A stretch of DNA of 64,000 bases, from contig JAJDAY010000025.1 of NCBI GenBank assembly GCA_029261655.1, forward strand, positions 36,390 through 100,389, written 5' to 3'. Origin of the DNA: Nitrospinaceae bacterium. Its GTDB lineage: Bacteria; Nitrospinota; Nitrospinia; Nitrospinales; VA-1. This document shows, piece by piece, positions 1 through 12,114 of the stretch (position 1 is the stretch's first letter; each line of letters opens with the position of its first letter). The notes below the pieces were generated by a model. That model searched no databases. It saw only the letters and a program-made list of their open reading frames with translations, and was not told the DNA's origin. The position numbers and the translations under genes were made by a program.

Positions 1-439
1 CACACCCGGTGATCGGCTTTTCTGATAAAAAATAGTTTCGATAACTGATTAAAGAAGCAAATTTCCTGCCAGAACGGGGAAAAACTATAAATTCAATTAA
101 AATACGGTTTTTCAAGAGCTTTCAACCTTCACTCCGCCCACGAAGCGGATGAAAAGACCACAAATGGATAAATCCAACCCATTGTTTTACTGGCTTTTGT
201 GCCAAATATTGTCATCTCGAAACCTTCGGGTGTTTTGCCGCACTCCCCCTGCCCTGGAGGCAGGGAGTTTAGGCCTGAGAATATTCTGAGACCGGGGGCC
301 TCATTTTTTTAAAATAGGGGAAGGAATTATCGGGGAACTCGAATAGAACCCTCGCGGTGGATTTTCCGCTAGAGCGCCGATCGGGAAAACCCAGGCCGCA
401 ATATTTCTGTCACCAGCGGCTCTGAGTTATATATCCTGG

Positions 440-619
440 TTACATAAGGGTGCGTATTGCGGAAGTCTCATCCTCATCCTCAAGGCTCATGACATGCTCT
501 CTATCTCTCTCTGTAAACTGGGTGCGAACGTAGTCCAGGGATCTTTTCTCTAATTCCGAACGTGTGACAATGTTCATCAATTTTCCGGTGCCGTCATAGA
601 TTCTAACTTCGTACAACAT
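440..619 (-). CDS. small hypothetical protein (59 aa, below ORF-track cutoff)
   Basis: ATG at 619-617 preceded by GGAGGTAAATT. Reads MLYEVRIYDGTGKLMNIVTRSELEKRSLDYVRTQFTERDREHVMSLEDEDETSAIRTLM, stop at 442-440. No family recognised. Confidence 0.35.
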   Translation of the reverse strand: MLYEVRIYDGTGKLMNIVTRSELEKRSLDYVRTQFTERDREHVMSLEDEDETSAIRTLM

Positions 620-1024
620 AATTTACCTCCGGTGCCGAGTGGTTGAATTCGAGTTAAAAACTTACAAAGTGTTGTTGGAAACCATCCGCCAGAAGGGGGG
701 ATCATTGGAGGAGACGTTTTCATCTGACGGATGGAATCCTAACTATTTTTAATGGCGAGAAAATCATCGCCTTGGATGATTACTACTTTGCCATAGCTAT
801 ATCGCAGATCCGTTAAGAGCATGTGACGGTTTGATTACTTTTGAATTTGATTTTAGACACCCGGCCCATGGGAGAATAACCTGCAGAAAATCAACGGGAA
901 ATGAGATGAAGGCATTTTCCTGAAGCAAAAAAATGATCCTCTGTTGGCCGGGGGATGCTTATAAAAAAGAGTTAATTTAAGGGTGGGAATGAAATGGTAA
1001 GAAAAAATGGTTTTTGCAGTTTCT

Positions 1025-1711
1025 TCAAAAAAGGTCGTTTTTATTTGCAACCTTTGATGAAAGAAATTTTAGAGTGTTGTCTTTGAGGTCAATCGTCGCC
1101 CTGGTTGGGGATACCGAGGCTGAAGAAATCAACCGCGCTTGTTTAACCTGAATGCGGGTCACGACTGTTTCTTCCCCTTTGGATGTTCTTACAGACCGAA
1201 TGAATTCAGCGTTGAGTTCTAAAAAACGGATCCCTGAAGAAGAGGAGCCTAGCGTCCCTACTGTATTTTCCGGGAACGGGTCATTTATTAATCTTTCATC
1301 TATTAATCTTTCATCATAATTTTTGGGGTGAAAGTTTTCAGGAGCGGTGGGTTGAAAAGGCGTCAGGGTTTCGGTGACGGGTTTGTTTTCTGGATCAGCC
1401 GATCGACGAGATATAAACGAAAATTTTGCCCCCACCTCGAAATGTCCAGAGGAAGAATAACCGGTGAGCGTTTTACAACGCACCACTTCCGCTTGAATTT
1501 CTTTTGGCTCTGATTCCTGCTTTTGCATGGGAAGGATCAAATCGAACTGCGTGCCGCTGGTGAAATACTTTGGGGCGCAAAAAGATATTCCGTGAATACT
1601 CAAGTCCCGGATGTTGACCTCCGACCGGTTTTTGGCAATGCCCCAAATGATACACGCCGACAAACCCACCTGCATTCTGGGCATTTTTCTTTTTTCCGCT
1701 GACAGATTCAT
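1025..1711 (-). CDS. PilZ domain protein (putative c-di-GMP receptor)
   Basis: The N-terminus carries both PilZ signature motifs, RxxxR (RKMPR) and D/NxSxxG (DLSIHG). Start moved to the ATG at 1711, which has GAGAGGAAG upstream; the ATG at 1741 has no RBS. Confidence 0.7.
   Translation of the reverse strand: MNLSAEKRKMPRMQVGLSACIIWGIAKNRSEVNIRDLSIHGISFCAPKYFTSGTQFDLILPMQKQESEPKEIQAEVVRCKTLTGYSSSGHFEVGAKFSFISRRSADPENKPVTETLTPFQPTAPENFHPKNYDERLIDERLINDPFPENTVGTLGSSSSGIRFLELNAEFIRSVRTSKGEETVVTRIQVKQARLISSASVSPTRATIDLKDNTLKFLSSKVANKNDLF
1287..1316. repeat. 15-bp tandem duplication inside the PilZ gene (encodes DERLI-DERLI)
   Basis: attaatctttcatct / attaatctttcatca read directly. Confidence 0.8.
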
Positions 1712-1970
1712 GCCAATCTTCCTCTCAGTCCAGAGAAACATTCATCATAGAAACATTATTTCTCAGCAAATAAAGCCCCAAAAAGTCCGGCGATCGAAAC
1801 CATAATATCACTATTTTCAATATCTTACAATAACCGTGCGGCCTTGGACCAAAGGGTCCAAAACCTCCAACCGTGACGAAAACGTGACAGGACCTTAACC
1901 CTGTTTAAATATTTATTTGAGATTCTGTTGACTCCAGAAAAGCCATTCACTTTTAATGGGGAGGTCAACT

Positions 1971-2138
1971 ATGGACACTGCAAATTTACCTAAAGAGATT
2001 GCCAGGATAAAATTAAAGGCTCGGTATATAGAGTTTCTGCACTGGAAAAAATTAGGGATGCGGTTGTTATGGAGATCGGTTCTATTGAATTTCCGGATAG
2101 GAAACCGAAAAATGAAATACCTGGTTGGAAGGAAATAA
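1971..2138 (+). CDS. small hypothetical protein (55 aa)
   Basis: ATG at 1971 sits 6 nt after GGGGAGG. Basic product MDTANLPKEIARIKLKARYIEF..., no recognisable family. Confidence 0.25.
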   Translation: MDTANLPKEIARIKLKARYIEFLHWKKLGMRLLWRSVLLNFRIGNRKMKYLVGRK

Positions 2139-2787
2139 ACTTCTTTAAACGCTTATTAAATTTTCTTTAAAAAAAATACCTCACGGCTCCCCGGCGACTC
2201 CCCAAGTGCGGGTCTCGAACCGCAACGCACTCTCTGATCCTGACCCAAGGGACTAGCGCATCGCATCACTTAAGCCCATTCAGACCACTAACTCTCACGG
2301 GAACCCCACGCACCTCATATATTTTCCGGGCCTGGCGTTTTCTCGAGGCCCAAGCTTCCTCTGGAAGAAGCGTCAGCTAATTTGCCCTCCGCATATCGAG
2401 GCGGGAGATTCTGACCCGCTGTTGGGAATCAAAAAAATTTATTTTATTCCCCCCTTTCTTCCAGCAACCCAAACTTGCCCGATTATATTTTGTCGATCAT
2501 TTTTTCTACCACCCGGAATTTATCCCCCACATCAAGGCTTTCTAAATAATATTTATCTTCTGAAAATATGGCGGCGCCGAAATGTGTGCCTCTTAGTAAG
2601 AGGATATACCGATAAATATCCGCCTAACCCATGCCCCTGCCCTTTCATTCCAAAAATTAAGATGAATTCAAAAAGTTGCTATTGCAAAATTTTTAATAAC
2701 TTTGATAGATTAAATGTAGATATGAGGTTTTCACACAGTCCTCGGGGGAGGATGGAACATGGAGGTTAACCACGAAGCGAGGGAATT

Positions 2788-3267
2788 ATGAAATATCTAC
2801 TGACCATCCTGATTTTATTGTTCGCATCTCCTGCGTTCGCCGGAGGAAATTTCGACGCGTTCAGCGGAGCCAATCAATCAAGCGGCGACAATGAACTGTA
2901 TGAGGAACCGGAAATTATCCAGGAAAATCCCATCCAGAAAAGCCCTGTCGCCGAGCAAGAGCAGGAACAGGAACAGGAACAGGAATTCAAAATCAACGAG
3001 AGATTGTACCGGGAAAGCATCGGTTCCAACGGCTACTATGGGGGCGGGTTTTATGGAGAAGAAAAGTATGCGGCCCTGATAGACTATTACACGATAACTT
3101 CCAATAACAGAGATTTTGATTTTGGAACGGGTTTCATTGTGGTGAATGACCAGCTCCTGCCAACAACCAATTTTTTGTCGCCTTTTGTCTCTCCCTTTGT
3201 CCAGGGCGGCATTCTATTTAACAGGGGAATCAGCATAAACCTTGGCAGCTTTAGTTTCAGACGCTGA
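2788..3267 (+). CDS. secreted hypothetical protein with an (EQ)n tract and a Gly/Tyr/Phe-rich C-terminal half
   Basis: Signal peptide MKYLLTILILLFASPAFA-GG and RBS GAGGGAATT before the ATG. Convergent with the Asn-rich paralog at 3386 and shares its terminator. Confidence 0.7.
   Translation: MKYLLTILILLFASPAFAGGNFDAFSGANQSSGDNELYEEPEIIQENPIQKSPVAEQEQEQEQEQEFKINERLYRESIGSNGYYGGGFYGEEKYAALIDYYTITSNNRDFDFGTGFIVVNDQLLPTTNFLSPFVSPFVQGGILFNRGISINLGSFSFRR
2953..2985 (+). repeat. GAR-CAR hexanucleotide microsatellite encoding EQEQEQEQEQE
   Basis: gagcaagagcaggaacaggaacaggaacaggaa read directly. Confidence 0.85.
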
Positions 3268-3301
3268 TAAGCATTACTAAAGATCGGTCAACCTGTCAGA
3301 C

Positions 3302-3347
3302 AAAAAAAACGGCAAGGAGACGTTGCATCTCCTTGCCGCTTTTATTT
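3302..3347. terminator. bidirectional intrinsic terminator shared by 2788..3267(+) and 3386..3985(-)
   Basis: Perfect 10-bp stem GGCAAGGAGA / TCTCCTTGCC (3311-3320 / 3328-3337) with a 7-nt loop. Flanked by A8 (3302-3309) and CTTTTATTT, so a U-tract follows the hairpin on both strands. Confidence 0.65.
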
Positions 3348-3360
3348 AAACCTGCAAAAT

Positions 3361-3380
3361 TGAATCAAACTTCTGATTCA
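3361..3380 (-). promoter_or_regulatory. conserved 3'-UTR hairpin (copy 1)
   Basis: TGAATCA-aacttc-TGATTCA, just downstream of the stop of 3386..3985. Confidence 0.5.
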
Positions 3381-3385
3381 GTTTA

Positions 3386-3985
3386 CTAGGGTACTGCTAT
3401 TACGCGAGGAGCGCCCAACCGGTTGCGGTTAAAGCTCTTCTTCGCTGTGAAGTTTTTGCTGGCATCAATGTCTACACCGATCCACGCGTTGGTGGAGCTG
3501 TTGTAGGAACTGTTGCTATTGTGAGAGTTGTTGACGTTGTAGTTTTTCATCACATCCACGTTCTTGGTCTTGGTGGTGTTGTAAGAATTTTTGTGGTTGT
3601 AAGAATTGATCGTAGAATCATTGATAGAGTTATCAATGTTAACCACATCGCCATCACCTGCGGCACCGGCGCCACCAAACTGCTGAACCACAAATTTTCC
3701 GCCAACCAGGTTGCCCTGAGCATTTACATTAACCTTGGTTTTGTTGGTAACATCGACATCGTAAGTCTTGTTGAAAGAATCTTTGATATCAACATCCAGA
3801 CCATCGTTATCCATGTTGTTCAAAGAACCTGTGACGTCAAGATCCAATCCATCGTCATCTGAATTATCGTTGAAAGATTTTTTGACATCGATATCAGTTC
3901 CGCCCCAATAGCCACCTGCGAAAGCTACGCTGGAAGAACCAACCAAACAAAGTGCGATTAATGCGGACAAGATTTTTTTCTGCAT
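3386..3985 (-). CDS. secreted Asn/Asp-rich repeat protein, paralog A (putative fibre/amyloid subunit)
   Basis: Start moved to MQKKILSALIALCLVGSSSVAFA (signal peptide) with AGGAG RBS. Motifs: recurring SFN(D/K/R), the GKFVVQQFGGAGAAG core, and NIDNSINDSTINS. Paralogous to 4107..4700 and 4826..5404. Confidence 0.85.
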   Translation of the reverse strand: MQKKILSALIALCLVGSSSVAFAGGYWGGTDIDVKKSFNDNSDDDGLDLDVTGSLNNMDNDGLDVDIKDSFNKTYDVDVTNKTKVNVNAQGNLVGGKFVVQQFGGAGAAGDGDVVNIDNSINDSTINSYNHKNSYNTTKTKNVDVMKNYNVNNSHNSNSSYNSSTNAWIGVDIDASKNFTAKKSFNRNRLGAPRVIAVP

Positions 3986-4029
3986 GATGCTTCTCCTTAA
4001 ATTAAAGTCAATTAAAGTTTGGATATAGT

Positions 4030-4060
4030 GCGGCAAGGAAATGCTGTGTCTCCTTGCCGC
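4030..4060 (-). promoter_or_regulatory. intercistronic stem-loop (copy 2 of the GGCAAGGAG hairpin), no U-tract on the coding strand
   Basis: GCGGCAAGGA / TCCTTGCCGC 10-bp stem. It extends to 12 bp with a G-U pair only in the minus-sense RNA. Confidence 0.55.
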
Positions 4061-4081
4061 GTTTGTTAAATCTACAAAACT

Positions 4082-4100
4082 GATTCAAACGTTCTGAATC
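4082..4100 (-). promoter_or_regulatory. conserved 3'-UTR hairpin (copy 2, with a compensatory base-pair swap)
   Basis: GATTCA-aacgttc-TGAATC, versus GAATCA/TGATTC in copies 1 and 3. Confidence 0.5.
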
Positions 4101-4106
4101 CGCTTA

Positions 4107-4700
4107 TTAATTCATTCCGTTTGGAAGTCCACGAAGGCCCCCCAATTGATTGCCATTGAAACTTCTAATGGCTTTGAAGTTGTGGCTCTGGTCAACGTTC
4201 ACATCAACGTCAAGGTCCAGGCTACGGGTGGAGCTACGAGTTTTGTTGAAAGAATTGTTGATCATGGAACTAGAGGTGTAGTTGTGATTAGAGGTATAGG
4301 TCCGGTTGTGAGAATTGGTGTCGTTATGGGAATTAATCGTAGAATCATTGATAGAGTTATCCACGTTAACCACACTGCCAGCACCTGCTGCACCGGCGCC
4401 ACCAAACTGCTGTACCACAAATTTTCCGATCACCCCGTTGCCCTGGGCATTTACATCAACTTTTGTTTTTTTGGTAATATCAATATTGTGAGTCTTATTA
4501 AAAGAATTCGTGACGTCAAGGTCCAAACCATCGTTGTCCATGCCGTTCAATGATTTGTTGACATCAACATCTATCAGATCATCATCAGAACGATCGTTGA
4601 AAGATTTGCTGATATCAATATCGTAGTAACCTGCGAACGCTACGCTGGCAGAACCTACCAGACAAAGAGCCAATACTGCGGACAAGATTTTCTTCTGCAT
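4107..4700 (-). CDS. secreted Asn/Asp-rich repeat protein, paralog B
   Basis: Start at MQKKILSAVLALCLVGSASVAFA with AGGAG RBS. Same motif architecture as paralogs A and C. Confidence 0.85.
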   Translation of the reverse strand: MQKKILSAVLALCLVGSASVAFAGYYDIDISKSFNDRSDDDLIDVDVNKSLNGMDNDGLDLDVTNSFNKTHNIDITKKTKVDVNAQGNGVIGKFVVQQFGGAGAAGAGSVVNVDNSINDSTINSHNDTNSHNRTYTSNHNYTSSSMINNSFNKTRSSTRSLDLDVDVNVDQSHNFKAIRSFNGNQLGGLRGLPNGMN

Positions 4701-4743
4701 GATGTTTCTCCTTAAATAGGTCAATTGAAGCTGGGTTAAAGTG

Positions 4744-4772
4744 CGGCAAGAAGATGTTGTACCTCCTTGCCG
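4744..4772 (-). promoter_or_regulatory. intercistronic stem-loop (copy 3 of the GGCAAGGAG hairpin)
   Basis: CGGCAAGAAG / CTCCTTGCCG. The single mismatch is A-C in plus sense but a G-U wobble in minus sense. Confidence 0.55.
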
Positions 4773-4794
4773 TGCTTGTTAAACCGTTACAACA

Positions 4795-4813
4795 GAATCA
4801 AACGATCTGATTC
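4795..4813 (-). promoter_or_regulatory. conserved 3'-UTR hairpin (copy 3)
   Basis: GAATCA-aacgatc-TGATTC. Confidence 0.5.
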
Positions 4814-4825
4814 CGTTAATCAAAG

Positions 4826-5404
4826 TTAGCGAGGTCCGATACCACCCAAGCGGTTGCGGTTGAAGCTGTTCACTGCTTTGAAGTTTTGGCTTTTGTCGAC
4901 GTCTACGTACACATCGATGTCTGCCGTGTGGCTGGAGGTACGGGTTTTGTTGAAAGAATCATTGATGTTCTTGGTAGAGGTGTAGTTGTGAGTAGAAGTA
5001 TAGGTACTGTTATGAGAATTGGTGTCGTTATTAGAATTAATCTTAGAACCATTGATAGAGTTATCAATGTTGTACACGTCACCAGCACCTGCTGCACCGG
5101 CGCCACCAAACTGCTGAACCACAAATTTACCCTTCACCAGGTTGCCCTGAGCATTTACATCAACTTTCGTATCTGAGCTGGCCCAAACATTAGCTTCTTT
5201 GTTGAAAGAACCTGTGATATCAGCATCGATCAAATCGTTGTCCATGTTGTTCAAAGATTTGTTGACATCAACATCTACATAATCGTCATCAGAACGATCG
5301 TTGAAAGATTTGCTGACATCAATGTCGTAATAACCTGCGAAAGCTACGCTGGCAGAACCTACCAGACAAAGTGCCAATACTGCGGATAAGATTTTCTTCT
5401 GCAT
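4826..5404 (-). CDS. secreted Asn/Asp-rich repeat protein, paralog C
   Basis: Start at MQKKILSAVLALCLVGSASVAFA. The N-terminal ~40 aa are nearly identical to paralog B. Same GKFVVQQFGGAGAAG core and NIDNSINGS motif. Confidence 0.85.
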   Translation of the reverse strand: MQKKILSAVLALCLVGSASVAFAGYYDIDVSKSFNDRSDDDYVDVDVNKSLNNMDNDLIDADITGSFNKEANVWASSDTKVDVNAQGNLVKGKFVVQQFGGAGAAGAGDVYNIDNSINGSKINSNNDTNSHNSTYTSTHNYTSTKNINDSFNKTRTSSHTADIDVYVDVDKSQNFKAVNSFNRNRLGGIGPR

Positions 5405-5454
5405 GATGTTTCTCCTTAAATTAAGCAAGTGATTAAATAAACTGCATTAGGTCA

Positions 5455-5488
5455 AGCAACAATAAAATTTCGATCCTGTGATCGAAAT
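5455..5488 (-). terminator. hairpin plus U-rich tract downstream of the CsgG-like gene (possible partial terminator)
   Basis: ATTTCGATC-ctgt-GATCGAAAT, a perfect 9-bp stem (5467-5475 / 5480-5488). In minus sense it is followed by TTTATTGTTG. Confidence 0.45.
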
Positions 5489-5494
5489 GAAAAA

Positions 5495-6367
5495 TCAGTA
5501 CGATACTTTCTGCCAGTCGTCTTCCTCGTCAAACGGCTCAACTTGGGTAGAAGCCGCGATAGGGGGTGCCTTACGAGCATCTTCAACACCTTCTACATTT
5601 GCGATGATTGACGAGCAGGATTTTGAGTCGATGTCGTAAAGGTCCGTCATCATCTCAAAGACAGCCATTTTCAGCATATTGCGCAATGCGAAGTGGACGG
5701 CTTCACGATGTTGTTCGCCCAAATCGACAGCCACTAAAATATCCCCAAAAAACCGGCCGATATTCGCGCCTATTTCGTCAGCAACAACCTGTTTGAAGAT
5801 GGAAGAATGTCCGACCACTTCTGAAGTTTTGGTGTCGGTTAAAAACAGATCCATCCCGATCAACATGCGGTGCTGGCGATATTTAGCTCCCACCCCGTAC
5901 ACACTGGCGTCGATGCCGCCGCCGGGAAGGAAATCCAGGCTGTTAATAGAACCTGTGATGTGATAGTCGGAACCGATCCATTTCACTTTTCCGCCAAAAG
6001 AGGCTTCCAGCTTCATCACTCGGGGATCACGTCGGTTGACCACGCGGGCAATTTGGGATTGCAACAAGGCGCTCTGAACGATATCGCCAGCCGCCTGGGT
6101 CACAAATTTTCCGTTTCCAGAGTCGGAAATGGAGAACTTACCGGTTTCATCACTGATCGCTCCAACACCGATGCTGGCTTTTTTGCCCAGGTAGGTAGAG
6201 CTCAGGCAGGAAAGCAAAGAATCATAGGGAGTCGTTATTTGATAAACAGGCTTGGGTCCTTCCGTCAATTTCATATCTTGCTTTAAGGGAGTGGTGGCGG
6301 CGCAACCGCTTCCCAAAGCTAAAATACTTAAAGCTAAAAAAAGCTTTGTTAGTCTCTCGTTGAACAT
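5495..6367 (-). CDS. csgG: CsgG/HfaB-family outer-membrane secretion-channel lipoprotein
   Basis: Start at MFNERL with GGAGG RBS. Lipoprotein-type signal ending LALGSG-C. Blocks align by eye to E. coli CsgG: IGVGAISDETGKF vs VSVYNIQDETGQF; ITGSINSLDF..GGGIDASVYGVGAKYRQ vs VEGSIIGYES..GGVGARYFGIGADTQYQ; LFLTDTKTSEVV vs LRVVNVSTGEIL. The symbol is family-level only. Confidence 0.85.
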   Translation of the reverse strand: MFNERLTKLFLALSILALGSGCAATTPLKQDMKLTEGPKPVYQITTPYDSLLSCLSSTYLGKKASIGVGAISDETGKFSISDSGNGKFVTQAAGDIVQSALLQSQIARVVNRRDPRVMKLEASFGGKVKWIGSDYHITGSINSLDFLPGGGIDASVYGVGAKYRQHRMLIGMDLFLTDTKTSEVVGHSSIFKQVVADEIGANIGRFFGDILVAVDLGEQHREAVHFALRNMLKMAVFEMMTDLYDIDSKSCSSIIANVEGVEDARKAPPIAASTQVEPFDEEDDWQKVSY

Positions 6368-6459
6368 TTTTTGTGCCTCCGAATTAAGCAAGGTTATGAA
6401 ACAAGTAATTAGAATTTAAAAATGTCGTTTCGTCGGTTCTGCCATCAAAACTGACGGTC

Positions 6460-6876
6460 TTATTTATTGATATTCTTGTTGATATTCGTATGAGTGGTGT
6501 TCGTATTGGTTGTGTTATTGCTGTTCTGAATGGTTTTATTAATATTCGTCGTTGTCGTCGAAGTTTTGGTTTTGTTAAAAGAATCTTTTGTGTTGAAGGA
6601 ATCGAGCACAGAATCATTTATGGAGTTATCAATTTGAATGATCTGACTCCCAATGTGAGTTGTCTCCGTACCGAAATAGGTGGAAGAACTATTGAATCCA
6701 TCCTCTTCAACGAGTTCGATGGCGAGTGCCTGCTCCACGAGGCGTGCTTTTTCAAATGATGATGGAAAGCCCCAACTATTGTTCCAATCTGCAGAAGGGT
6801 TGGCAAGAGCGGAACTTCCGCTCAGGAGTAGCGCCGCAACCGCAAGCATCAGAATTTTTCCTGAAAATTTACACAT
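6460..6876 (-). CDS. secreted protein with a unique N-terminal domain and an Asn/Thr-rich tail that shares a module with the paralogs (candidate accessory/nucleator)
   Basis: Start moved to MCKFSGKILMLAVAALLLSGSSALA (signal peptide) with GAGAGG RBS. The segment QIDNSINDSVLDSFNTKDSFNKTKT matches NIDNSINDSTINSYNHKNSYNTTKT of paralog A. Lies directly upstream of the CsgG-like gene. Confidence 0.75.
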   Translation of the reverse strand: MCKFSGKILMLAVAALLLSGSSALANPSADWNNSWGFPSSFEKARLVEQALAIELVEEDGFNSSSTYFGTETTHIGSQIIQIDNSINDSVLDSFNTKDSFNKTKTSTTTTNINKTIQNSNNTTNTNTTHTNINKNINK

Positions 6877-7003
6877 GATGAACCTCTCTGGTAAAAAAGT
6901 TATTTTCACAGCCAGGCATTGGTGATCTTTCTCGAACCGGCCTGTGTGAACCCTCTCGAATTAAATGTCTTGAGGTGAATATTGCAGTACGGTTGTTAAG
7001 TTT

Positions 7004-7032
7004 TTATCAATCCAATGTCACAATAGTGTCAA
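7004..7032 (-). promoter_or_regulatory. possible sigma70-type promoter for the 6876-to-3386 gene string
   Basis: In minus sense, TTGACA (7032-7027) followed 17-18 nt later by GATAAA. By-eye match only. Confidence 0.25.
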
Positions 7033-7559
7033 CTTGGGCACTTAAAATTGTTTTCAACACAAGTTATAGAAGCGATGCATCCTCTTAGACCGAACCCTGT
7101 CGGATAACACCCACCAGCCTGTATTGAGCTCCATGATGGACGATGGGTGTTAAGGTTTGGTTAAAGGGATGTCACTGTTTGAAAAAACCTGGGGGGCCAC
7201 TGCAAAAGGGTTGTAAAATCGGCCCTTTGCAAGAACAAAGCGGATGTTTCCTTAGCTTGGAAGGGATTTTTTCAGGGCGGGCAGGAAATCAACCCACGGG
7301 AGGATATGCAAGGATGTGGAAGGGCGATTATGAGGATCGTAACAAGGCTGAAAAAGAATGATCAGGCGAAAGCCCGCCTCTATAAAGCGAAGATCTCATC
7401 TGCCCTCGTAGCCTATGAGACCGGGAGCGGTCGACGAGGGGGGGCGGCCTGCTGTCTCAGATTCAATTTTTCTTCGTAAACCTCAAGTTTTTTCGCTCAT
7501 TAACCGTTACGAAAATCAGGAGGCTCCGATTCAAATTTTTATATAAGAGGTAAGAGATC

Positions 7560-7709
7560 ATGGAAAAAGTGAAAGTCATTTACCCAATCCCGGCAACTTT
7601 GAGTGGCGAAAACGATTCCTACGGTTCCCGCCAGTTCATCATGAAGACAATCGCCGCGTCTCTTTGCGGAGCCGTCGTTCCCGCGATCATTTTTTATTTT
7701 ATGATGTGA
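7560..7709 (+). CDS. small hypothetical protein (49 aa) with a C-terminal hydrophobic helix
   Basis: ATG preceded by AAGAGGTAAGAGATC. Reads MEKVKVIYPIPATLSGENDSYGSRQFIMKTIAASLCGAVVPAIIFYFMM. Below the ORF-track cutoff. Confidence 0.3.
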   Translation: MEKVKVIYPIPATLSGENDSYGSRQFIMKTIAASLCGAVVPAIIFYFMM

Positions 7710-7868
7710 TTCATCGCCTGCTTGGCCGCTGCTTTCCGTGAATTTCTTAACGATTCCAGGATAAACTTGTAGGGCCGTGCGTGCCATCCGCCTTATACCT
7801 GCCTTGATAGATCACTCCGTCTTTATTAAATCACTCGTTCTGCGTTAAAACACTCGTACCTCGTTGGA

Positions 7869-8540
7869 TCACTCGTTTTTTCGGGGAGTCTTTTTTTGTT
7901 CCTCGCACTCGAAAGTCGTGTCCGAAGTCCATTTTATGTTGAGATGATCGGGAAGCTTCGTGGTGTTATCCACCACGGCAGACTCGAGATCTTTACACGA
8001 TAATTTTCTTATATTGCGTAAATCCGCTCCCTGGAGCAAGACACCCTTCAAACAAGCTCCCTCCAGATTAGAACCCTTGAGATTGGCTCTCTGGAGATCG
8101 GAGCCTTCGAGATTGGCTTCCTCTAAATGCGCCTGGGGGATCTGAGCATCTTGCAGGTTAACGCCCTTTAAGTTTGCCCGCCTGAGGTTTGCCTTCATCA
8201 GAAAACTTTCGCGTAAATTTGCCTGACTGAAATTCGCCCCCTTCAGAAACGCACCTTCGAACTTAGCCCTTCGTAGAAAAGCCTCTGTCAGATTTGCCCC
8301 GCTCAAGTTGGCTTTATAAAAATTTGCGCCGCTCAGGTTGGCTTTATTAAGGTTCGCTTTATTCAAATTCGCATTTGAAAAATCAGCCTCGCTCAAAAAA
8401 GCCTCGCTGAGATTGGCTTCCCGAAGATCGCCATAACTGAAATTGGCTTTACCAAGATCCAGAGTGGAGAGATCTGCGCCCTTGAGGTTGTCTTTTTCAG
8501 CGATGATTTTCTTGCGGTCAAAATGTAAATTTTCTGGCAT
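7869..8540 (-). CDS. pentapeptide-repeat protein
   Basis: Long run of A(D/N)LxX pentads, e.g. ANLNKANLNKANLSGANFYKANLSGANLTEAFLRRAKFEGAFLKGANF. Confidence 0.9.
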   Translation of the reverse strand: MPENLHFDRKKIIAEKDNLKGADLSTLDLGKANFSYGDLREANLSEAFLSEADFSNANLNKANLNKANLSGANFYKANLSGANLTEAFLRRAKFEGAFLKGANFSQANLRESFLMKANLRRANLKGVNLQDAQIPQAHLEEANLEGSDLQRANLKGSNLEGACLKGVLLQGADLRNIRKLSCKDLESAVVDNTTKLPDHLNIKWTSDTTFECEEQKKTPRKNE

Positions 8541-8691
8541 GGTATTATCCCTGGTTGTTACAGAACTTCAGATAAAATCATTGACCTAAATTGTATCAAA
8601 GGTTAAATTCGAAACCGCGTTGCCATTTTTGATTGAAGTTTTTTCAGGTATCCTATCATACCTGTTCACGACCCCACCAAGGATTGTAAAT

Positions 8692-9261
8692 ATGAGCACA
8701 CACCATGATGCCGTGTTATACGAAATTCGACAAACCGTCCAGGAAACCGTCAACCGATCCAACCGTATCGCCGGACCCATAAACTGCGATGTAGCGAGCC
8801 TGCAATACGGATTGGGATTTATCGTTTGCCGGGGTTTTCTGGAAAAGGAAATGAATAAAAAATGCACCCTCCCAGCCCCGGGGAAATTTCCCAAACGCAT
8901 GAAAAATATTTCCGGCAAACCCTTCGTCCGGGCCATAGACTACTGGCAGTACAAATTCGACCCCAAAATCACCTGGTACGGCTGGGAGGAGTTGACCCTT
9001 TTTTTCCGGCTGACAGATTGCTTCAGCGAAAGCGGAGGAACCTTGAATGGCAAGGGAGTGCGGATCAAAGCGTTTCTAAAACAGTTGGAGGCAGGCGAAA
9101 TTAAAAACCGCAAAAAGAAACCGGTCGATCCTTATTTTGATATCAATGACCAGGGCAAACTGAAATTACAGGATGAAGCGCTGGAACGGTTCACATCCCT
9201 GTCCGGGGAACTGGTTCATCTGGCGGAAAAATTTCTGCGCAAGAAAAAAAGGTCCTCGTAA
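8692..9261 (+). CDS. hypothetical protein
   Basis: ATG at 8692 (MSTHHDAVLYEIRQ...). The track version starts at an upstream TTG. Basic C-terminus, no family recognised. Confidence 0.55.
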   Translation: MSTHHDAVLYEIRQTVQETVNRSNRIAGPINCDVASLQYGLGFIVCRGFLEKEMNKKCTLPAPGKFPKRMKNISGKPFVRAIDYWQYKFDPKITWYGWEELTLFFRLTDCFSESGGTLNGKGVRIKAFLKQLEAGEIKNRKKKPVDPYFDINDQGKLKLQDEALERFTSLSGELVHLAEKFLRKKKRSS

Positions 9262-9273
9262 AACAATATTTAT

Positions 9274-11946
9274 TCAATGCGCTTCGTTCCAGTTGTTGCC
9301 CCATCCCATATCGACAATGATGGGAACGGAAAATTTATAGACCCCTTCCATTTCCTTTTTCACCAGAGCCTGCATTTCTTCTTTTTCAGCGGGCGGGCAT
9401 TCAAAAACCAATTCATCATGGACCTGCAGGATCATCTTCGATCGCAGTTTGCGCTTTTTCAATTGCCCGGACAAATTGATCATCGCCACTTTAATAAGAT
9501 CGGCGGCGCTTCCCTGAATGGGCGAGTTGATCGCGATCCTCTCCGCCGCCTGCTTCACCTGTTTGTTTTTGCTGTGAATGTCCGGCAGGGTGCGTTTGCG
9601 GTTCATGATCGTGATCGTGTATCCCTTCTCACGGGCCTGGGCGATGGTGTTGTCCATATAAGTCTTGATGCGCGGATACAAATCAAAATACTGATCGATG
9701 AATGTCTTGGCTTCTTTCATGGAAATTTTTAATTGCCTGGACAGGCCAAACGAACTCAATCCGTAAATGATGCCAAAGTTCACCGCCTTGGCCATCCGGC
9801 GGGCTTCCTGATCGACATTATCGAGAGCCGTTCCAAAAATTTCCGCCGCCGTCCGGCTATGAATATCCTCTCCCTTCTTAAACGCTTTTATCAGGGTTTC
9901 ATCTTCTGAAAGATGCGCCAGAATTCGGAGTTCGATCTGCGAGTAATCGGCGGACAACAACTTGTCTTCCCCTTCGGCGACAAACGCCTTTCTTATCTCT
10001 TTGCCCATGTCCGTGCGGATAGGGATGTTTTGCAAATTGGGATCACTGCTGCTCAAACGCCCGGTCGCCGCCACCGTTTGATTGAACGAGGTGTGCACCC
10101 GACCGGTTTTTTTGTCAATCTCCAAAGGCAGCGTGTCGACATAAGTCGATTTTAATTTCCCCAATTGGCGAAAGACCAGTATATTCGCAGGCAAGTCATG
10201 CTGGTCGGCCAGTTCTTCTAAAACCGAAACGTCGGTGGAATATCCGGTTTTGGTTTTTTTGACAACCGGAAGTTTGAGCTTCTCAAATAAAATCACCGCA
10301 AGCTGCTTGGGTGAATTGATATTAAACTCTTCCTCGGCGAGCTGATAGATTTTCTGCTCGTAGGTGCGTAGTTTCTTTTCTATCTGCTTTGACAAATCCG
10401 CCAGGTGTTGTTTATCCAGAAACACACCGTTCAATTCCATTTCCGCCAGCACTTCGAGAAGGGGCATTTCCATTTCGTTGAACAATTGAAGCAGTTCATC
10501 GGTCAACTTTGGTTTGAGATTTTTGTAAAGCCGCCAGGTAATATCAGAATCCTCCGCCGCATACTCCGTGGCCCGTTCAACGTCCACCTCGTCGAAGCCG
10601 ATTTGTTTGGCCCCGGTTCCCGTCACATCCTTATAGGTGATGGTTTGATGCCCGAGCAATTCCAGAGCCAGCGCATCCATGCCATGCCCCCGGCGCGAAG
10701 GGTCCAGCACATAAGAGGCGAGCATGGTGTCAAATGAAATTCCCTTGAGATGAATGCCTTCGTTTAGGAGGACGATCAGGTCGTATTTGATATTATGCCC
10801 GATTTTGCCTATTTTTGGATTCTCCAGAATAGGCTTTAATTTCTGGAAAACCATTTTAGGGTCCAACTGTTCCGGCACACCCAGATACCTATGAGTGAGC
10901 GGGATGTAATACGCCTCATTTTCCTCAAATGCAAAAGAAATCCCCACCGATTCCGCATCCACCGGGTGCAGGCTGGTGGTTTCCATGTCGAGAACAAACT
11001 CTTCCTGAAAACCAAGGTCAGCCAGCAACGCATCAAACGCTTTTTCTGTCAAAATGGTTTGATATTTATGCGGCGCTCGAACAGGCGTTTTTTCTTCCTT
11101 GGGGATCAGGGAAGAAAACTCCAACTCCGTAAAAATTTTGGTGAGCGCTGTCATATCCACCGCCTGAACTTTCAGATCATCGATGGAACAATTGACCGCC
11201 ACGTCCGTGTCGATGGTGACCAGCTTCCGGCTCAGTTCAGCATTTTCCCGGTCCGTCTCCAGCTTTTCTTTGAGCTTTTTTTTGTCGATCTCATTAATAT
11301 GCTGGTAAATATTTTCAATCGAGCCGAATTTCTGAATCAATTCCGCCGCCGTTTTTGGCCCCACCCCTTTCACGCCGGGAATGTTGTCGCTCGAATCGCC
11401 CATCAACCCCATCACATCAATGACCTTATCCGGTCCCACGCCGAATTTTTCGATCACTTCCTTTTTGCCGAAACGTTTATTTTTCATCGTGTCCAGCATC
11501 TGGATGTCAGGCTCGATCAACTGCATCATGTCCTTGTCGCCTGAGACAATGACGACCTTCAAACCCGCTTTTTTCCCCTGCCGGGCCAGAGTCCCGATGA
11601 TGTCGTCGGCCTCGACACCTGGAATGCGGATCGAGTGAATATTGTGAGCGGCAACCAGACGTTCAAAATAGGGGAACTGTTTTTGCAAATCTTCTGGCGG
11701 GGTGTCCCGGTTGGCTTTATAATCAGCGTACATTTCATGGCGAAATGTCTTTTCCTTGCTGTCAAAAGTCACGGTCAGGTAGTCAGGACACTCATCCCGC
11801 ACCACTCTTTGCAACATGGTGACAAACCCGTAAAGGGCATTGGTGGGAAGACCTTTTGACGTGGAAAGATTTTGCCTGACTCCAAAATAAGCCCGGAAAA
11901 TATAAGAAGACCCGTCTATCAAATAGAGGGTTTGTTTGTCGCTCAT
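9274..11946 (-). CDS. polA: DNA polymerase I
   Basis: Contains the 5'-nuclease, 3'-5' exonuclease and Pol A palm motifs (RRMAKAVNFGIIYG, QVHDELVFE). Start moved to MSDKQTLYLIDGSSYIFRAYF. Confidence 0.97.
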   Translation of the reverse strand: MSDKQTLYLIDGSSYIFRAYFGVRQNLSTSKGLPTNALYGFVTMLQRVVRDECPDYLTVTFDSKEKTFRHEMYADYKANRDTPPEDLQKQFPYFERLVAAHNIHSIRIPGVEADDIIGTLARQGKKAGLKVVIVSGDKDMMQLIEPDIQMLDTMKNKRFGKKEVIEKFGVGPDKVIDVMGLMGDSSDNIPGVKGVGPKTAAELIQKFGSIENIYQHINEIDKKKLKEKLETDRENAELSRKLVTIDTDVAVNCSIDDLKVQAVDMTALTKIFTELEFSSLIPKEEKTPVRAPHKYQTILTEKAFDALLADLGFQEEFVLDMETTSLHPVDAESVGISFAFEENEAYYIPLTHRYLGVPEQLDPKMVFQKLKPILENPKIGKIGHNIKYDLIVLLNEGIHLKGISFDTMLASYVLDPSRRGHGMDALALELLGHQTITYKDVTGTGAKQIGFDEVDVERATEYAAEDSDITWRLYKNLKPKLTDELLQLFNEMEMPLLEVLAEMELNGVFLDKQHLADLSKQIEKKLRTYEQKIYQLAEEEFNINSPKQLAVILFEKLKLPVVKKTKTGYSTDVSVLEELADQHDLPANILVFRQLGKLKSTYVDTLPLEIDKKTGRVHTSFNQTVAATGRLSSSDPNLQNIPIRTDMGKEIRKAFVAEGEDKLLSADYSQIELRILAHLSEDETLIKAFKKGEDIHSRTAAEIFGTALDNVDQEARRMAKAVNFGIIYGLSSFGLSRQLKISMKEAKTFIDQYFDLYPRIKTYMDNTIAQAREKGYTITIMNRKRTLPDIHSKNKQVKQAAERIAINSPIQGSAADLIKVAMINLSGQLKKRKLRSKMILQVHDELVFECPPAEKEEMQALVKKEMEGVYKFSVPIIVDMGWGNNWNEAH

Positions 11947-12114
11947 GGGTCCATGGGGAAATAATTTTTCTGGGGAAGGGGAAAACGCCCCCGTGAATGA
12001 AAAACGATTATAGGGGCGGCCGATTGCCGAGTCCAACGAATTATGCTATGATGCCTCTCGTTTTAACCACTAAACTTATTGTAAACAAAGGACTATAGTG
12101 CGACTCCGCGTGTC

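Follow-up and report, generated by a model that had tools for sequence, protein, structure and literature searches.

A conserved and undescribed CsgG/HfaB-type module of Nitrospinota comprising a channel-family lipoprotein, a linked partner protein and variable secreted cargo

Relation of the locus to described CsgG-family systems

Lipoproteins of the CsgG/HfaB type are needed for curlin secretion in the case of CsgG, and for the surface localisation of HfaA and HfaD in the case of HfaB; in Caulobacter, HfaB brings to the cell surface both HfaA, a small curlin-like protein, and HfaD, each of which forms multimers resistant to sodium dodecyl sulfate (SDS) and heat, and each of which depends on the other (PMC6707917; bioRxiv 10.1101/2022.07.20.500906). 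The present analysis concerns a locus coding for a lipoprotein of this type on a 64,000-nucleotide stretch of DNA from a Nitrospinaceae bacterium (assembly GCA_029261655.1, contig JAJDAY010000025.1, positions 36,390 to 100,389), hereafter the window. Five open reading frames (ORFs), all on the minus strand and all situated where a first-pass annotation made from the sequence letters had placed them, together with a convergent sixth member, make up a CsgG/HfaB-type module that is genuine, conserved and so far undescribed. The uncharacterised status claimed for it in that annotation was borne out by literature searches, which gave nothing on the subfamily, nor on CsgG in Nitrospina. The genes, with the names used throughout, are as follows:

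6460..6876, minus strand: A, 138-residue secreted partner (ORF with a signal peptide, an N-module and a cargo-like tail)
5495..6367, minus strand: B, 290-residue CsgG/HfaB-family outer-membrane lipoprotein, predicted channel (Pfam, NCBIfam, structure prediction and Foldseek)
4826..5404, minus strand: C1, 192-residue secreted Asn/Asp/Ser/Thr-rich paralog, putative major subunit
4107..4700, minus strand: C2, 197-residue paralog
3386..3985, minus strand: C3, 199-residue paralog
2788..3267, plus strand: E, 159-residue signal-peptide protein, candidate accessory component, convergent with the cargo genes

The closest analogue is the Hfa anchor, since B prefers the HfaB profile to that of CsgG (94.6 versus 23 bits) and the genes are arranged alike: in Caulobacter hfaA-hfaB-hfaD (plus HfaE), the gene for a CsgG-family lipoprotein lies between those for a small upstream and a larger downstream secreted protein, and the order A-B-cargo, found in all loci, is identical. 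The mutual dependence of HfaA and HfaD would similarly parallel the pairing of A with its cargo proposed below. The two systems nevertheless differ in that B falls far short of the 300-bit cutoff of the HfaB model, the cargo slot is variable and in the window triplicated, E is an additional component, and the host belongs to Nitrospinota. Comparison with HfaA and HfaD was made by means of models and source names, the presence of HfaA/HfaD models in the library being unconfirmed, and on that basis neither A, nor C, nor any other cargo matched either protein (E <= 10).

In the curli system (csgBAC-csgDEFG), the unfolded curlins CsgA and CsgB leave the cell through CsgG, assisted by CsgE and CsgF. 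Likeness to this system resides in the CsgG fold of B, complete with transmembrane hairpins, and in Sec-dependent substrates that are predicted to be unfolded; in concept, the tail of A may be compared with the nucleator CsgB, and a channel-bound adaptor with CsgF. By way of contrast, the locus lacks curlin repeats, CsgE, CsgF and CsgC, and its cargo has one core motif as opposed to five repeats. The earlier suggestion that the partners of the channel differ from curlin, CsgE and CsgF was thus sustained by Pfam, NCBIfam and hhalign comparisons. The related statement that CsgA, CsgB, CsgC and CsgE genes are absent from the 4 kb on either side held, and extended to CsgF, as no similar ORF was detected throughout the 64 kb with E. 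coli query sequences entered by hand; for CsgD it can be repeated only in part, in that no regulator of this type occurred among the neighbouring products scanned with Pfam and NCBIfam, CsgD itself not having been searched for.

A third point of reference is the Acinetobacter D1G37_12595-12605/Neisseria GNA1162-type three-lipoprotein cluster, likewise an uncharacterised and widespread CsgG-family cluster, with a link to the biofilm matrix, the channel-family partners of which are, however, two lipoproteins (with a GNA1162/TolB-like fold) rather than A, C and E (bioRxiv 10.1101/2021.05.19.444899).

Lipoprotein B, partner A and the variable cargo

The product of B passed the Pfam CsgG model (PF03783) with 48.1 bits against a gathering cutoff of 20.8, residues 62-244 aligning with positions 8-202 of the 210-position profile, and its sequence also matched the PDB entries for CsgG (E 4.7e-5). 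The best named NCBIfam match was HfaB (NF037935; 94.6 bits, E 5.5e-27), for which the equivalog cutoff of 300 was missed, as was that of the CsgG equivalog NF011731 (23 bits against 505); B thus belongs to the superfamily without being an orthologue of either CsgG or HfaB. Because its alphaproteobacterial and Thauera relatives also reached only 86-98 bits on the HfaB model, the subfamily to which it belongs is considered to be sister to HfaB. An AlphaFold2 (AF2) model of the B monomer based on 53 homologues (mean predicted local distance difference test score, pLDDT, 67) comprised an alpha/beta core plus two long beta-hairpins at 135-178 and 184-221, with strands at 135-156/159-178 and 184-207/210-221 respectively. 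When this model was submitted to Foldseek, the top 25 PDB matches were all CsgG, membrane-inserted chains ranked above pre-pore chains, and the first match was 6l7c_A (E 6e-14, template modelling (TM) score 0.63). Profile and predicted fold hence agreed in confirming the original assignment of 5495-6367 to the CsgG/HfaB-family lipoproteins.

A lipobox, MFNERLTKLFLALSILALGSG followed by Cys (LGSG/C) and having Gly at position -3 where Leu is canonical, was read from the sequence, and the Cys concerned (C22) was nearly invariant in the 53 homologues. The residues forming the pore constriction in E. coli CsgG we take to be Tyr51, Asn55 and Phe56; at the corresponding position B has the loop DETGKFSISDSGNGKFVTQ, distinguished by invariant G84, G86, T90 and Q91 and an N-G-K-F motif, in a region that was modelled with pLDDT below 50 (78-87) and that aligned poorly with the CsgG sequence. 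The C-terminal tail, acidic and aromatic in character (..VEPFDEEDDWQKVSY), is also conserved. Coded for by 5495-5590 and located outside the CsgG fold, it consists of a low-confidence linker ending in the conserved VEPFD-E-EDDWQKVSY; in locus L004 the segment is triplicated (VEPFDTEAEPVA x3). The terminal motif could serve as a short linear motif for the recruitment of a periplasmic partner.

The closest homologues of B (74-95% identity) occurred in Nitrospinaceae/Nitrospinota metagenome-assembled genomes (MAGs), and the family extended at 41-55% identity to Alphaproteobacteria (marine MAGs, Ochrobactrum/Brucella, Aureimonas and Pacificitalea) and Thauera. In a linkage survey, for which the ORFs of 30 fetched loci (cited by L numbers) and of the window were classed by means of hidden Markov models (HMMs), A immediately preceded B wherever upstream sequence was available, amounting to about 27 loci, and this adjacency spanned Nitrospinota, marine alphaproteobacterial MAGs, Brucella/Ochrobactrum, Thauera and Pacificitalea; in proteobacterial loci the stop codon of A often overlapped the start of B. 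The check on conservation of the gene neighbourhood that had been proposed with the first-pass annotation thus returned a conserved neighbourhood. On a plasmid of Vibrio (L016), a more distant CsgG/HfaB gene, its product 27% identical to B, was found without an A gene. On a contig binned as Campylobacterales (L006), a B protein of 67% identity was accompanied by A and a 344-residue repeat cargo, the module adjoining a 1838-residue ribonucleotide-reductase-like ORF (apparently intein-containing, as read from the translation) and an SMC/SbcC-like gene; this could reflect mis-binning, the presence of a mobile element or horizontal transfer.

The A protein consists of a signal peptide ending SSALA/NP, a conserved N-module (S.DWN.SWGF....EK..L.EQALAIELVE.DGF) and a cargo-like tail (IDNSINDSVLDSFNTKDSFNKTKT..). 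The same N-module, in the family-wide form S-x-D-W-N-x-[SN]-[WF]-x-F-x4-E-[KR]-x3-L-x-Q-A-x2-I-E, follows immediately upon the signal peptide throughout a family of 52 proteins, every one of them unnamed; A gave no Pfam or NCBIfam match, and RefSeq lists the partner proteins as 'hypothetical protein'. Identity between A and the C paralogs was only 30%, with a common core of about 40 residues (IDNSINDS..S.N.T.T), for which hhalign of the A tail against the C core returned 78% and E 1.9e-5. The initial description of four cargo proteins accordingly requires correction: A is a distinct, B-linked family and not a fourth cargo, only its tail being cargo-like.

Identity of A with CsgF was considered on account of a resemblance visible by eye (WNNSWGFPSS..LVEQALAIE against NPNFGGNPNN..LLNSAQAQ in CsgF), and was set aside in favour of a functional analogy at an hhalign value of 1.6%. 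Marine alphaproteobacterial loci contained a second A-like protein of 118 residues (L008 9698-10054, minus strand; P0209-P0218), in which the same N-module is joined to an unrelated Trp-rich tail (..IDRSGDFWADWSVAGVTV), a finding that favours treating the N-module as a portable unit. Two bactofilin-domain proteins were coded immediately upstream of A-B in Thauera (L013 4465-5551), and a weak bactofilin match (E 0.006) came from the cargo of L009, an alphaproteobacterial locus.

The three C genes are tandem paralogs, as first described, with protein identities of 63-75%; at the DNA level they form tandem repeats of 704-727 bp that are 75-90% identical, intergenic hairpins included. All four non-channel products have signal peptides and, in mature form, contain 44-50% N+D+S+T, have isoelectric points of 4.7-5.1 and are devoid of Cys. 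Alternation of Asp with hydrophobic residues (D-hydrophobic-D) was enriched about six-fold over shuffled sequences (5 occurrences, where about 0.8 would be expected; p <= 0.002), and N-x-S/T sequons were not enriched beyond composition (p 0.05-0.12). The ATG starts of A and B are backed by Shine-Dalgarno sequences (AGAGAGG before 6876 and GGAGG before 6367 respectively), and an identical TTAAGGAGAAACATC-ATG, providing a strong ribosome-binding site in each case, stands ahead of C1, C2 and C3. Substitutions between the C paralogs were distributed over the three codon positions as 32/28/61; because of this excess at position 3, and because homologues occur in many metagenomes, the A and C ORFs are taken to be real genes.

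The C family is exceedingly rare: 39 members, all unnamed, emerged from 5.8 billion proteins in a word-indexed search, and 13 clusters from 1.84 billion cluster representatives when the profile was run exhaustively. Curlin_rpt matched none of 38 C members and none of the A proteins at E <= 10, no C member matched a meaningful Pfam family, and neither a PDB search with the C profile nor a search for antifreeze or RTX family matches returned anything; the possibility raised at the outset, that the paralogs might score as curlin repeats, can thus be dismissed, and all four products, A as well as C1-C3, are without a Pfam, NCBIfam or PDB match. An AF2 model of C2 based on a 38-sequence alignment had a mean pLDDT of 40.7 and, apart from the signal peptide, was devoid of secondary structure, contrary to the beta-solenoid or Asn ladder initially expected of the paralogs; AF2 behaves otherwise on CsgA. 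On this prediction the C monomer looks intrinsically disordered, which would fit passage through a narrow CsgG-type pore while proving nothing with regard to the assembled state.

The slot 3' of B was always filled by at least one gene for a signal-peptide protein, the family of which differed by lineage. Two or three C paralogs lay downstream of B in the window and in L002, L017 and L031; L003 (8536-12801) contained two complete tandem A-B-C modules with nearly identical B copies, and the whole module can therefore duplicate, beyond the cargo gene alone. Seven loci of sister Nitrospinota (L004, L005, L010, L018, L021, L023 and L033), the B proteins of which are 74-88% identical, had instead one cargo of 283-517 residues made up of as many as about nine units of some 47 residues (xFxTxNINKGxVxAxTxTxAxxDVxxNxIxTxAxGAxxxIxxxG). 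The notion that C might correspond to a single such unit was prompted by the appearance of distant C members (GNVAAQAN..LLAVGNSMSL), and was abandoned when the repeat profile reached no more than 0.1-1.6% in hhalign comparisons with C, A and CsgA; signal emerged solely from the HMMs specific to the tails, described next.

Nitrospinota A tails fall into two types, type 1 (IDNSINDS..) and type 2 (AIGSQVNIDVNGD..DGNTAAQ, with AIGSQVNI..), and HMMs built from the tails alone were scored against real and shuffled cargo (300 shuffles). The type-1 model scored 16-36 bits on C cargo (z 5.5-10.7, with none of the 300 shuffles as high) and gave no signal on repeat cargo; conversely, the type-2 model scored 2.6-11.2 bits on repeat cargo (z 1.8-5.9) and gave no signal on C. 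Alphaproteobacterial A tails scored 12-13 bits on their own cargo in two of three loci (z about 7.3) and 4.7 bits in the third (z 2.7). The same tails also scored 8-14.5 bits on Nitrospinota repeat cargo and gave no signal on C, on which grounds the repeat cargo type looks ancestral, and the lineage represented in the window looks to have switched its cargo and A tail together. These score patterns argue that the tail of A must match the cargo, which would be in keeping with a nucleator- or anchor-like role.

An aromatic dyad straight after the signal-peptide cleavage site was observed in unrelated cargo families (A/GYYDID, A/GGYW, A/DSYYQGN, A/DYWATLN, A/DFWEGF, A/DDFWTG), namely in C1-C3 of the window and 36 of 38 C-family members, in the repeat proteins of L004, L005, L010 and L033, and in the cargo of L006-L009 and L024. 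It may act as a signal that targets cargo to the channel.

Proposed mechanism and its rivals

The reading to which we incline, with modest confidence, is that of an export and surface-assembly module of type-VIII or holdfast-anchor-like character, in which A serves for docking and templating and C1-C3 are the subunits. All five products would cross the inner membrane via Sec, whereupon B, once lipidated, would form an oligomeric CsgG-type beta-barrel channel in the outer membrane, through which A and C may be exported. The N-module of A, conserved across phyla, would dock the protein at or through B, and its tail, a copy of the core motif of the local cargo, would provide a cell-bound template or anchor, such that A would combine the roles of CsgF and CsgB, or else fulfil that of HfaA. 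The C proteins would then be abundant subunits, acidic, free of Cys and unfolded as monomers, and polymerisation on A would turn them into a fibre, mat or anchor at the cell surface; amyloid or fibre formation by C is accordingly a suggestion, and Ca2+ or Mg2+ may bridge the strands in which Asp and hydrophobic residues alternate. A role as accessory protein is envisaged for E, and regulation may possibly involve a conserved DNA element upstream of A and cyclic di-GMP (c-di-GMP), a gene for a PilZ protein being situated nearby.

Several observations weigh against this mechanism. Some lipoproteins of the CsgG/HfaB family serve the biogenesis of polysaccharide or pili, and not amyloid export (bioRxiv 10.1101/2021.05.19.444899). 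Profile alignment linked A to CsgF at only 1.6% and C to CsgA at 12% (the CsgA sequence having been entered by hand), and the 47-residue repeats showed no hhalign similarity to C, A or CsgA. The signal of the type-2 tail on repeat cargo is modest; AF2 gave C neither a beta-solenoid nor any other fold, from an alignment that is itself shallow (an effective number of sequences, hhalign Neff, of 2.7); and N+Q counts of 17-21 per 80 residues do not reach 30, the classical threshold for a Q/N-rich prion-like domain.

The main rival, which overlaps mechanistically with the proposed export module and which we judge unlikely, holds that A, B and C form an outer-membrane protein anchor tethering an exopolysaccharide (EPS) or adhesin, in the manner of HfaA/HfaB/HfaD. 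The preference of B for the HfaB profile and the shared gene order (PMC6707917) both favour it, as do the presence of an asparagine-synthase gene resembling an XrtA/PEP-CTERM EPS amidotransferase beside A in five sister loci, the glycosyltransferase genes that flank the L010 module, and the proximity of genes related to c-di-GMP (PilZ in the window, EAL in Brucella). Yet B misses the HfaB equivalog cutoff (94.6 bits against 300), HfaA and HfaD appear in no model or source name matched by a protein of the locus, the window lacks the asnB-like gene, and no polysaccharide genes were found within about 4 kb of the module, that is, in its immediate neighbourhood; nor do we know of any report of a holdfast in Nitrospinota. 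It is distinctly improbable that B is no exporter in this setting and is instead a structural lipoprotein of the envelope, a role already put forward for other CsgG-family clusters, with A, C and E reaching the periplasm or surface by another route to act as ion-, mineral- or ice-binding or envelope-conditioning proteins. The Asp-rich alternating strands and DNDG motifs, read directly, do look like Ca2+ ligands, the Thr/Asn-rich tails resemble ice-binding surfaces by composition only, and in Acinetobacter it is poly-N-acetylglucosamine (PNAG) and pili, not amyloid, that a CsgG homologue affects (bioRxiv 10.1101/2021.05.19.444899); such a scheme is nonetheless opposed by the strict adjacency and stop/start overlap of A and B across phyla, the co-variation of A tail and cargo, the membrane hairpins within the CsgG fold of B, and the want of antifreeze or RTX matches.

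Two further explanations are essentially excluded. One, of very low probability, regards the locus as divergent curli, with C as degenerate single-repeat curlins and A as the orthologue of CsgB or CsgF. By eye the C core KFVVQQFGGAGAAG..V.NVDNS does recall curlin repeat R4 (MTVKQFGGGNGAAVDQ), and C2 and C1 ranked top among 608 window ORFs for E. coli CsgA (E 0.18-0.26); hhalign paired 27 columns of the C profile with CsgA 22-48, the N-terminal Gly-rich segment and not R4. Against this, Pfam searches with the 38 members, the PDB profile search and hhalign against CsgA were all negative or insignificant with respect to a curlin identity of C, nothing matched CsgE, CsgF, CsgC or CsgB, B fell far below the CsgG equivalog cutoff, and both a repeat array and a predicted solenoid are absent. 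The other, for which even less can be said, is that the ORFs are low-complexity artefacts and not genes: extreme composition, want of annotation in databases and the large shadow ORFs facing them on the other strand would be expected of an artefact, but homologues in many independent metagenomes share the signal peptide and motifs, substitutions peak at the third codon position, and ribosome-binding sites, terminators and synteny are conserved.

A wider form of the export mechanism is advanced tentatively and must be considered somewhat doubtful. According to this, the A-B pair would be a general and hitherto unrecognised modular platform used across phyla, in which the N-module is seated in, or docked on, a CsgG/HfaB-type pore and the tail templates the cargo, lineages swap cargo and tail jointly, and the aromatic dyad exposed by cleavage, [DG]x0-2[YF][YW], is a targeting signal shared by the cargo families. 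Were it true, the window would record a joint switch from 47-residue-repeat cargo to the C family.

Flanking genes, regulatory DNA and wider meaning

Further features of the window in the vicinity of the module are the following:

1025..1741, minus strand: PilZ-domain protein, c-di-GMP receptor family, syntenic neighbour (Pfam PilZ)
3305..3343, minus strand: strong intrinsic terminator 3' of C3, with an 18-bp stem followed by a T-run
4031..4070, minus strand: GC-rich conserved hairpin 3' of C2, GCGGCAAGGAG..CTCCTTGCCGC, with no T-run
4744..4783, minus strand: the same conserved hairpin 3' of C1, with no T-run
5467..5488, minus strand: weak terminator-like hairpin between B and C1
6994..7021, minus strand: second, degenerate copy of the upstream element
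7148..7175, minus strand: conserved non-coding element upstream of A, GTGACATCCCTTTAACCAAACCTTAACA

The E gene directly followed the cargo genes in 10 loci (L002, L003, L005, L010, L017, L018, L019, L023, L031 and L033), and was retained whatever the cargo type, including in L010, where the other flanking genes differ; its product gave no Pfam, NCBIfam or PDB match. The PilZ protein (34.2 bits against a cutoff of 22.5) was kept beside the module in L002, L003, L005, L019 and L033, and an EAL protein adjoins the Brucella module; a functional link between the PilZ neighbour and the module is no more than suggestive. The sole strong terminator of the C array is that after C3, the hairpins that follow C1 and C2 being alike and without a T-run, and these are likely to be partial terminators or stabilisers of the mRNA.

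Some 50 nt in extent and almost invariant, the element upstream of A was present in nine Nitrospinota loci with the layout GTGACAT..CCTTAAC(N4)CCTTAACACC..CATCATG, CCTTAAC forming a direct repeat 11 bp apart. It occurred twice in the 64 kb, both times upstream of A, where none would be expected by chance, and could be a candidate transcription-factor site or an unusual promoter. Rfam detected no c-di-GMP riboswitch or other relevant RNA over positions 1-12000 at E <= 1, and a scan for sigma-70 promoters found no excess over shuffled sequences.

In five sister loci (L003 6144-8090, L005 5070-7010, L031, L032 and L033) an asparagine-synthase-family gene lay divergently upstream of A; it passed the asn_synth_AEB cutoff, and the model that it most resembled was that of the XrtA/PEP-CTERM EPS amidotransferase (582-596 bits). 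It is worthy of attention for its position beside cargo of which Asn makes up 15-16%, or else for the link to exopolysaccharide that it may provide. A 35-residue remnant persists in L004, and the gene is absent from L001, L002, L018 and the window, in which the corresponding position (about 6910-7868) holds no remnant. Between polA and the module, the window codes for a pentapeptide-repeat protein of the Alr5209 family (7869-8540, minus strand; 165.7 bits) and an unannotated 213-residue ORF (8620-9261, plus strand), both syntenic across Nitrospinota loci and probably representing background synteny.

Nitrospinota are the main nitrite oxidisers of the ocean and, to our knowledge, their means of particle attachment or matrix formation are not known. 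CsgG with CsgF is the pore deployed in commercial nanopore sequencing, and a natural CsgG-like pore with another lumen-binding partner could for that reason have practical value. Understanding of CsgG-family export is confined to two systems, curli and the holdfast anchor of Caulobacter; the locus defines a third and phylogenetically broad subfamily, in which an obligatory partner of its own, A, is combined with interchangeable cargo, both absent from Pfam and NCBIfam, and the match between the tail of A and the cargo offers a testable rule for the nucleation of surface polymers at the pore.

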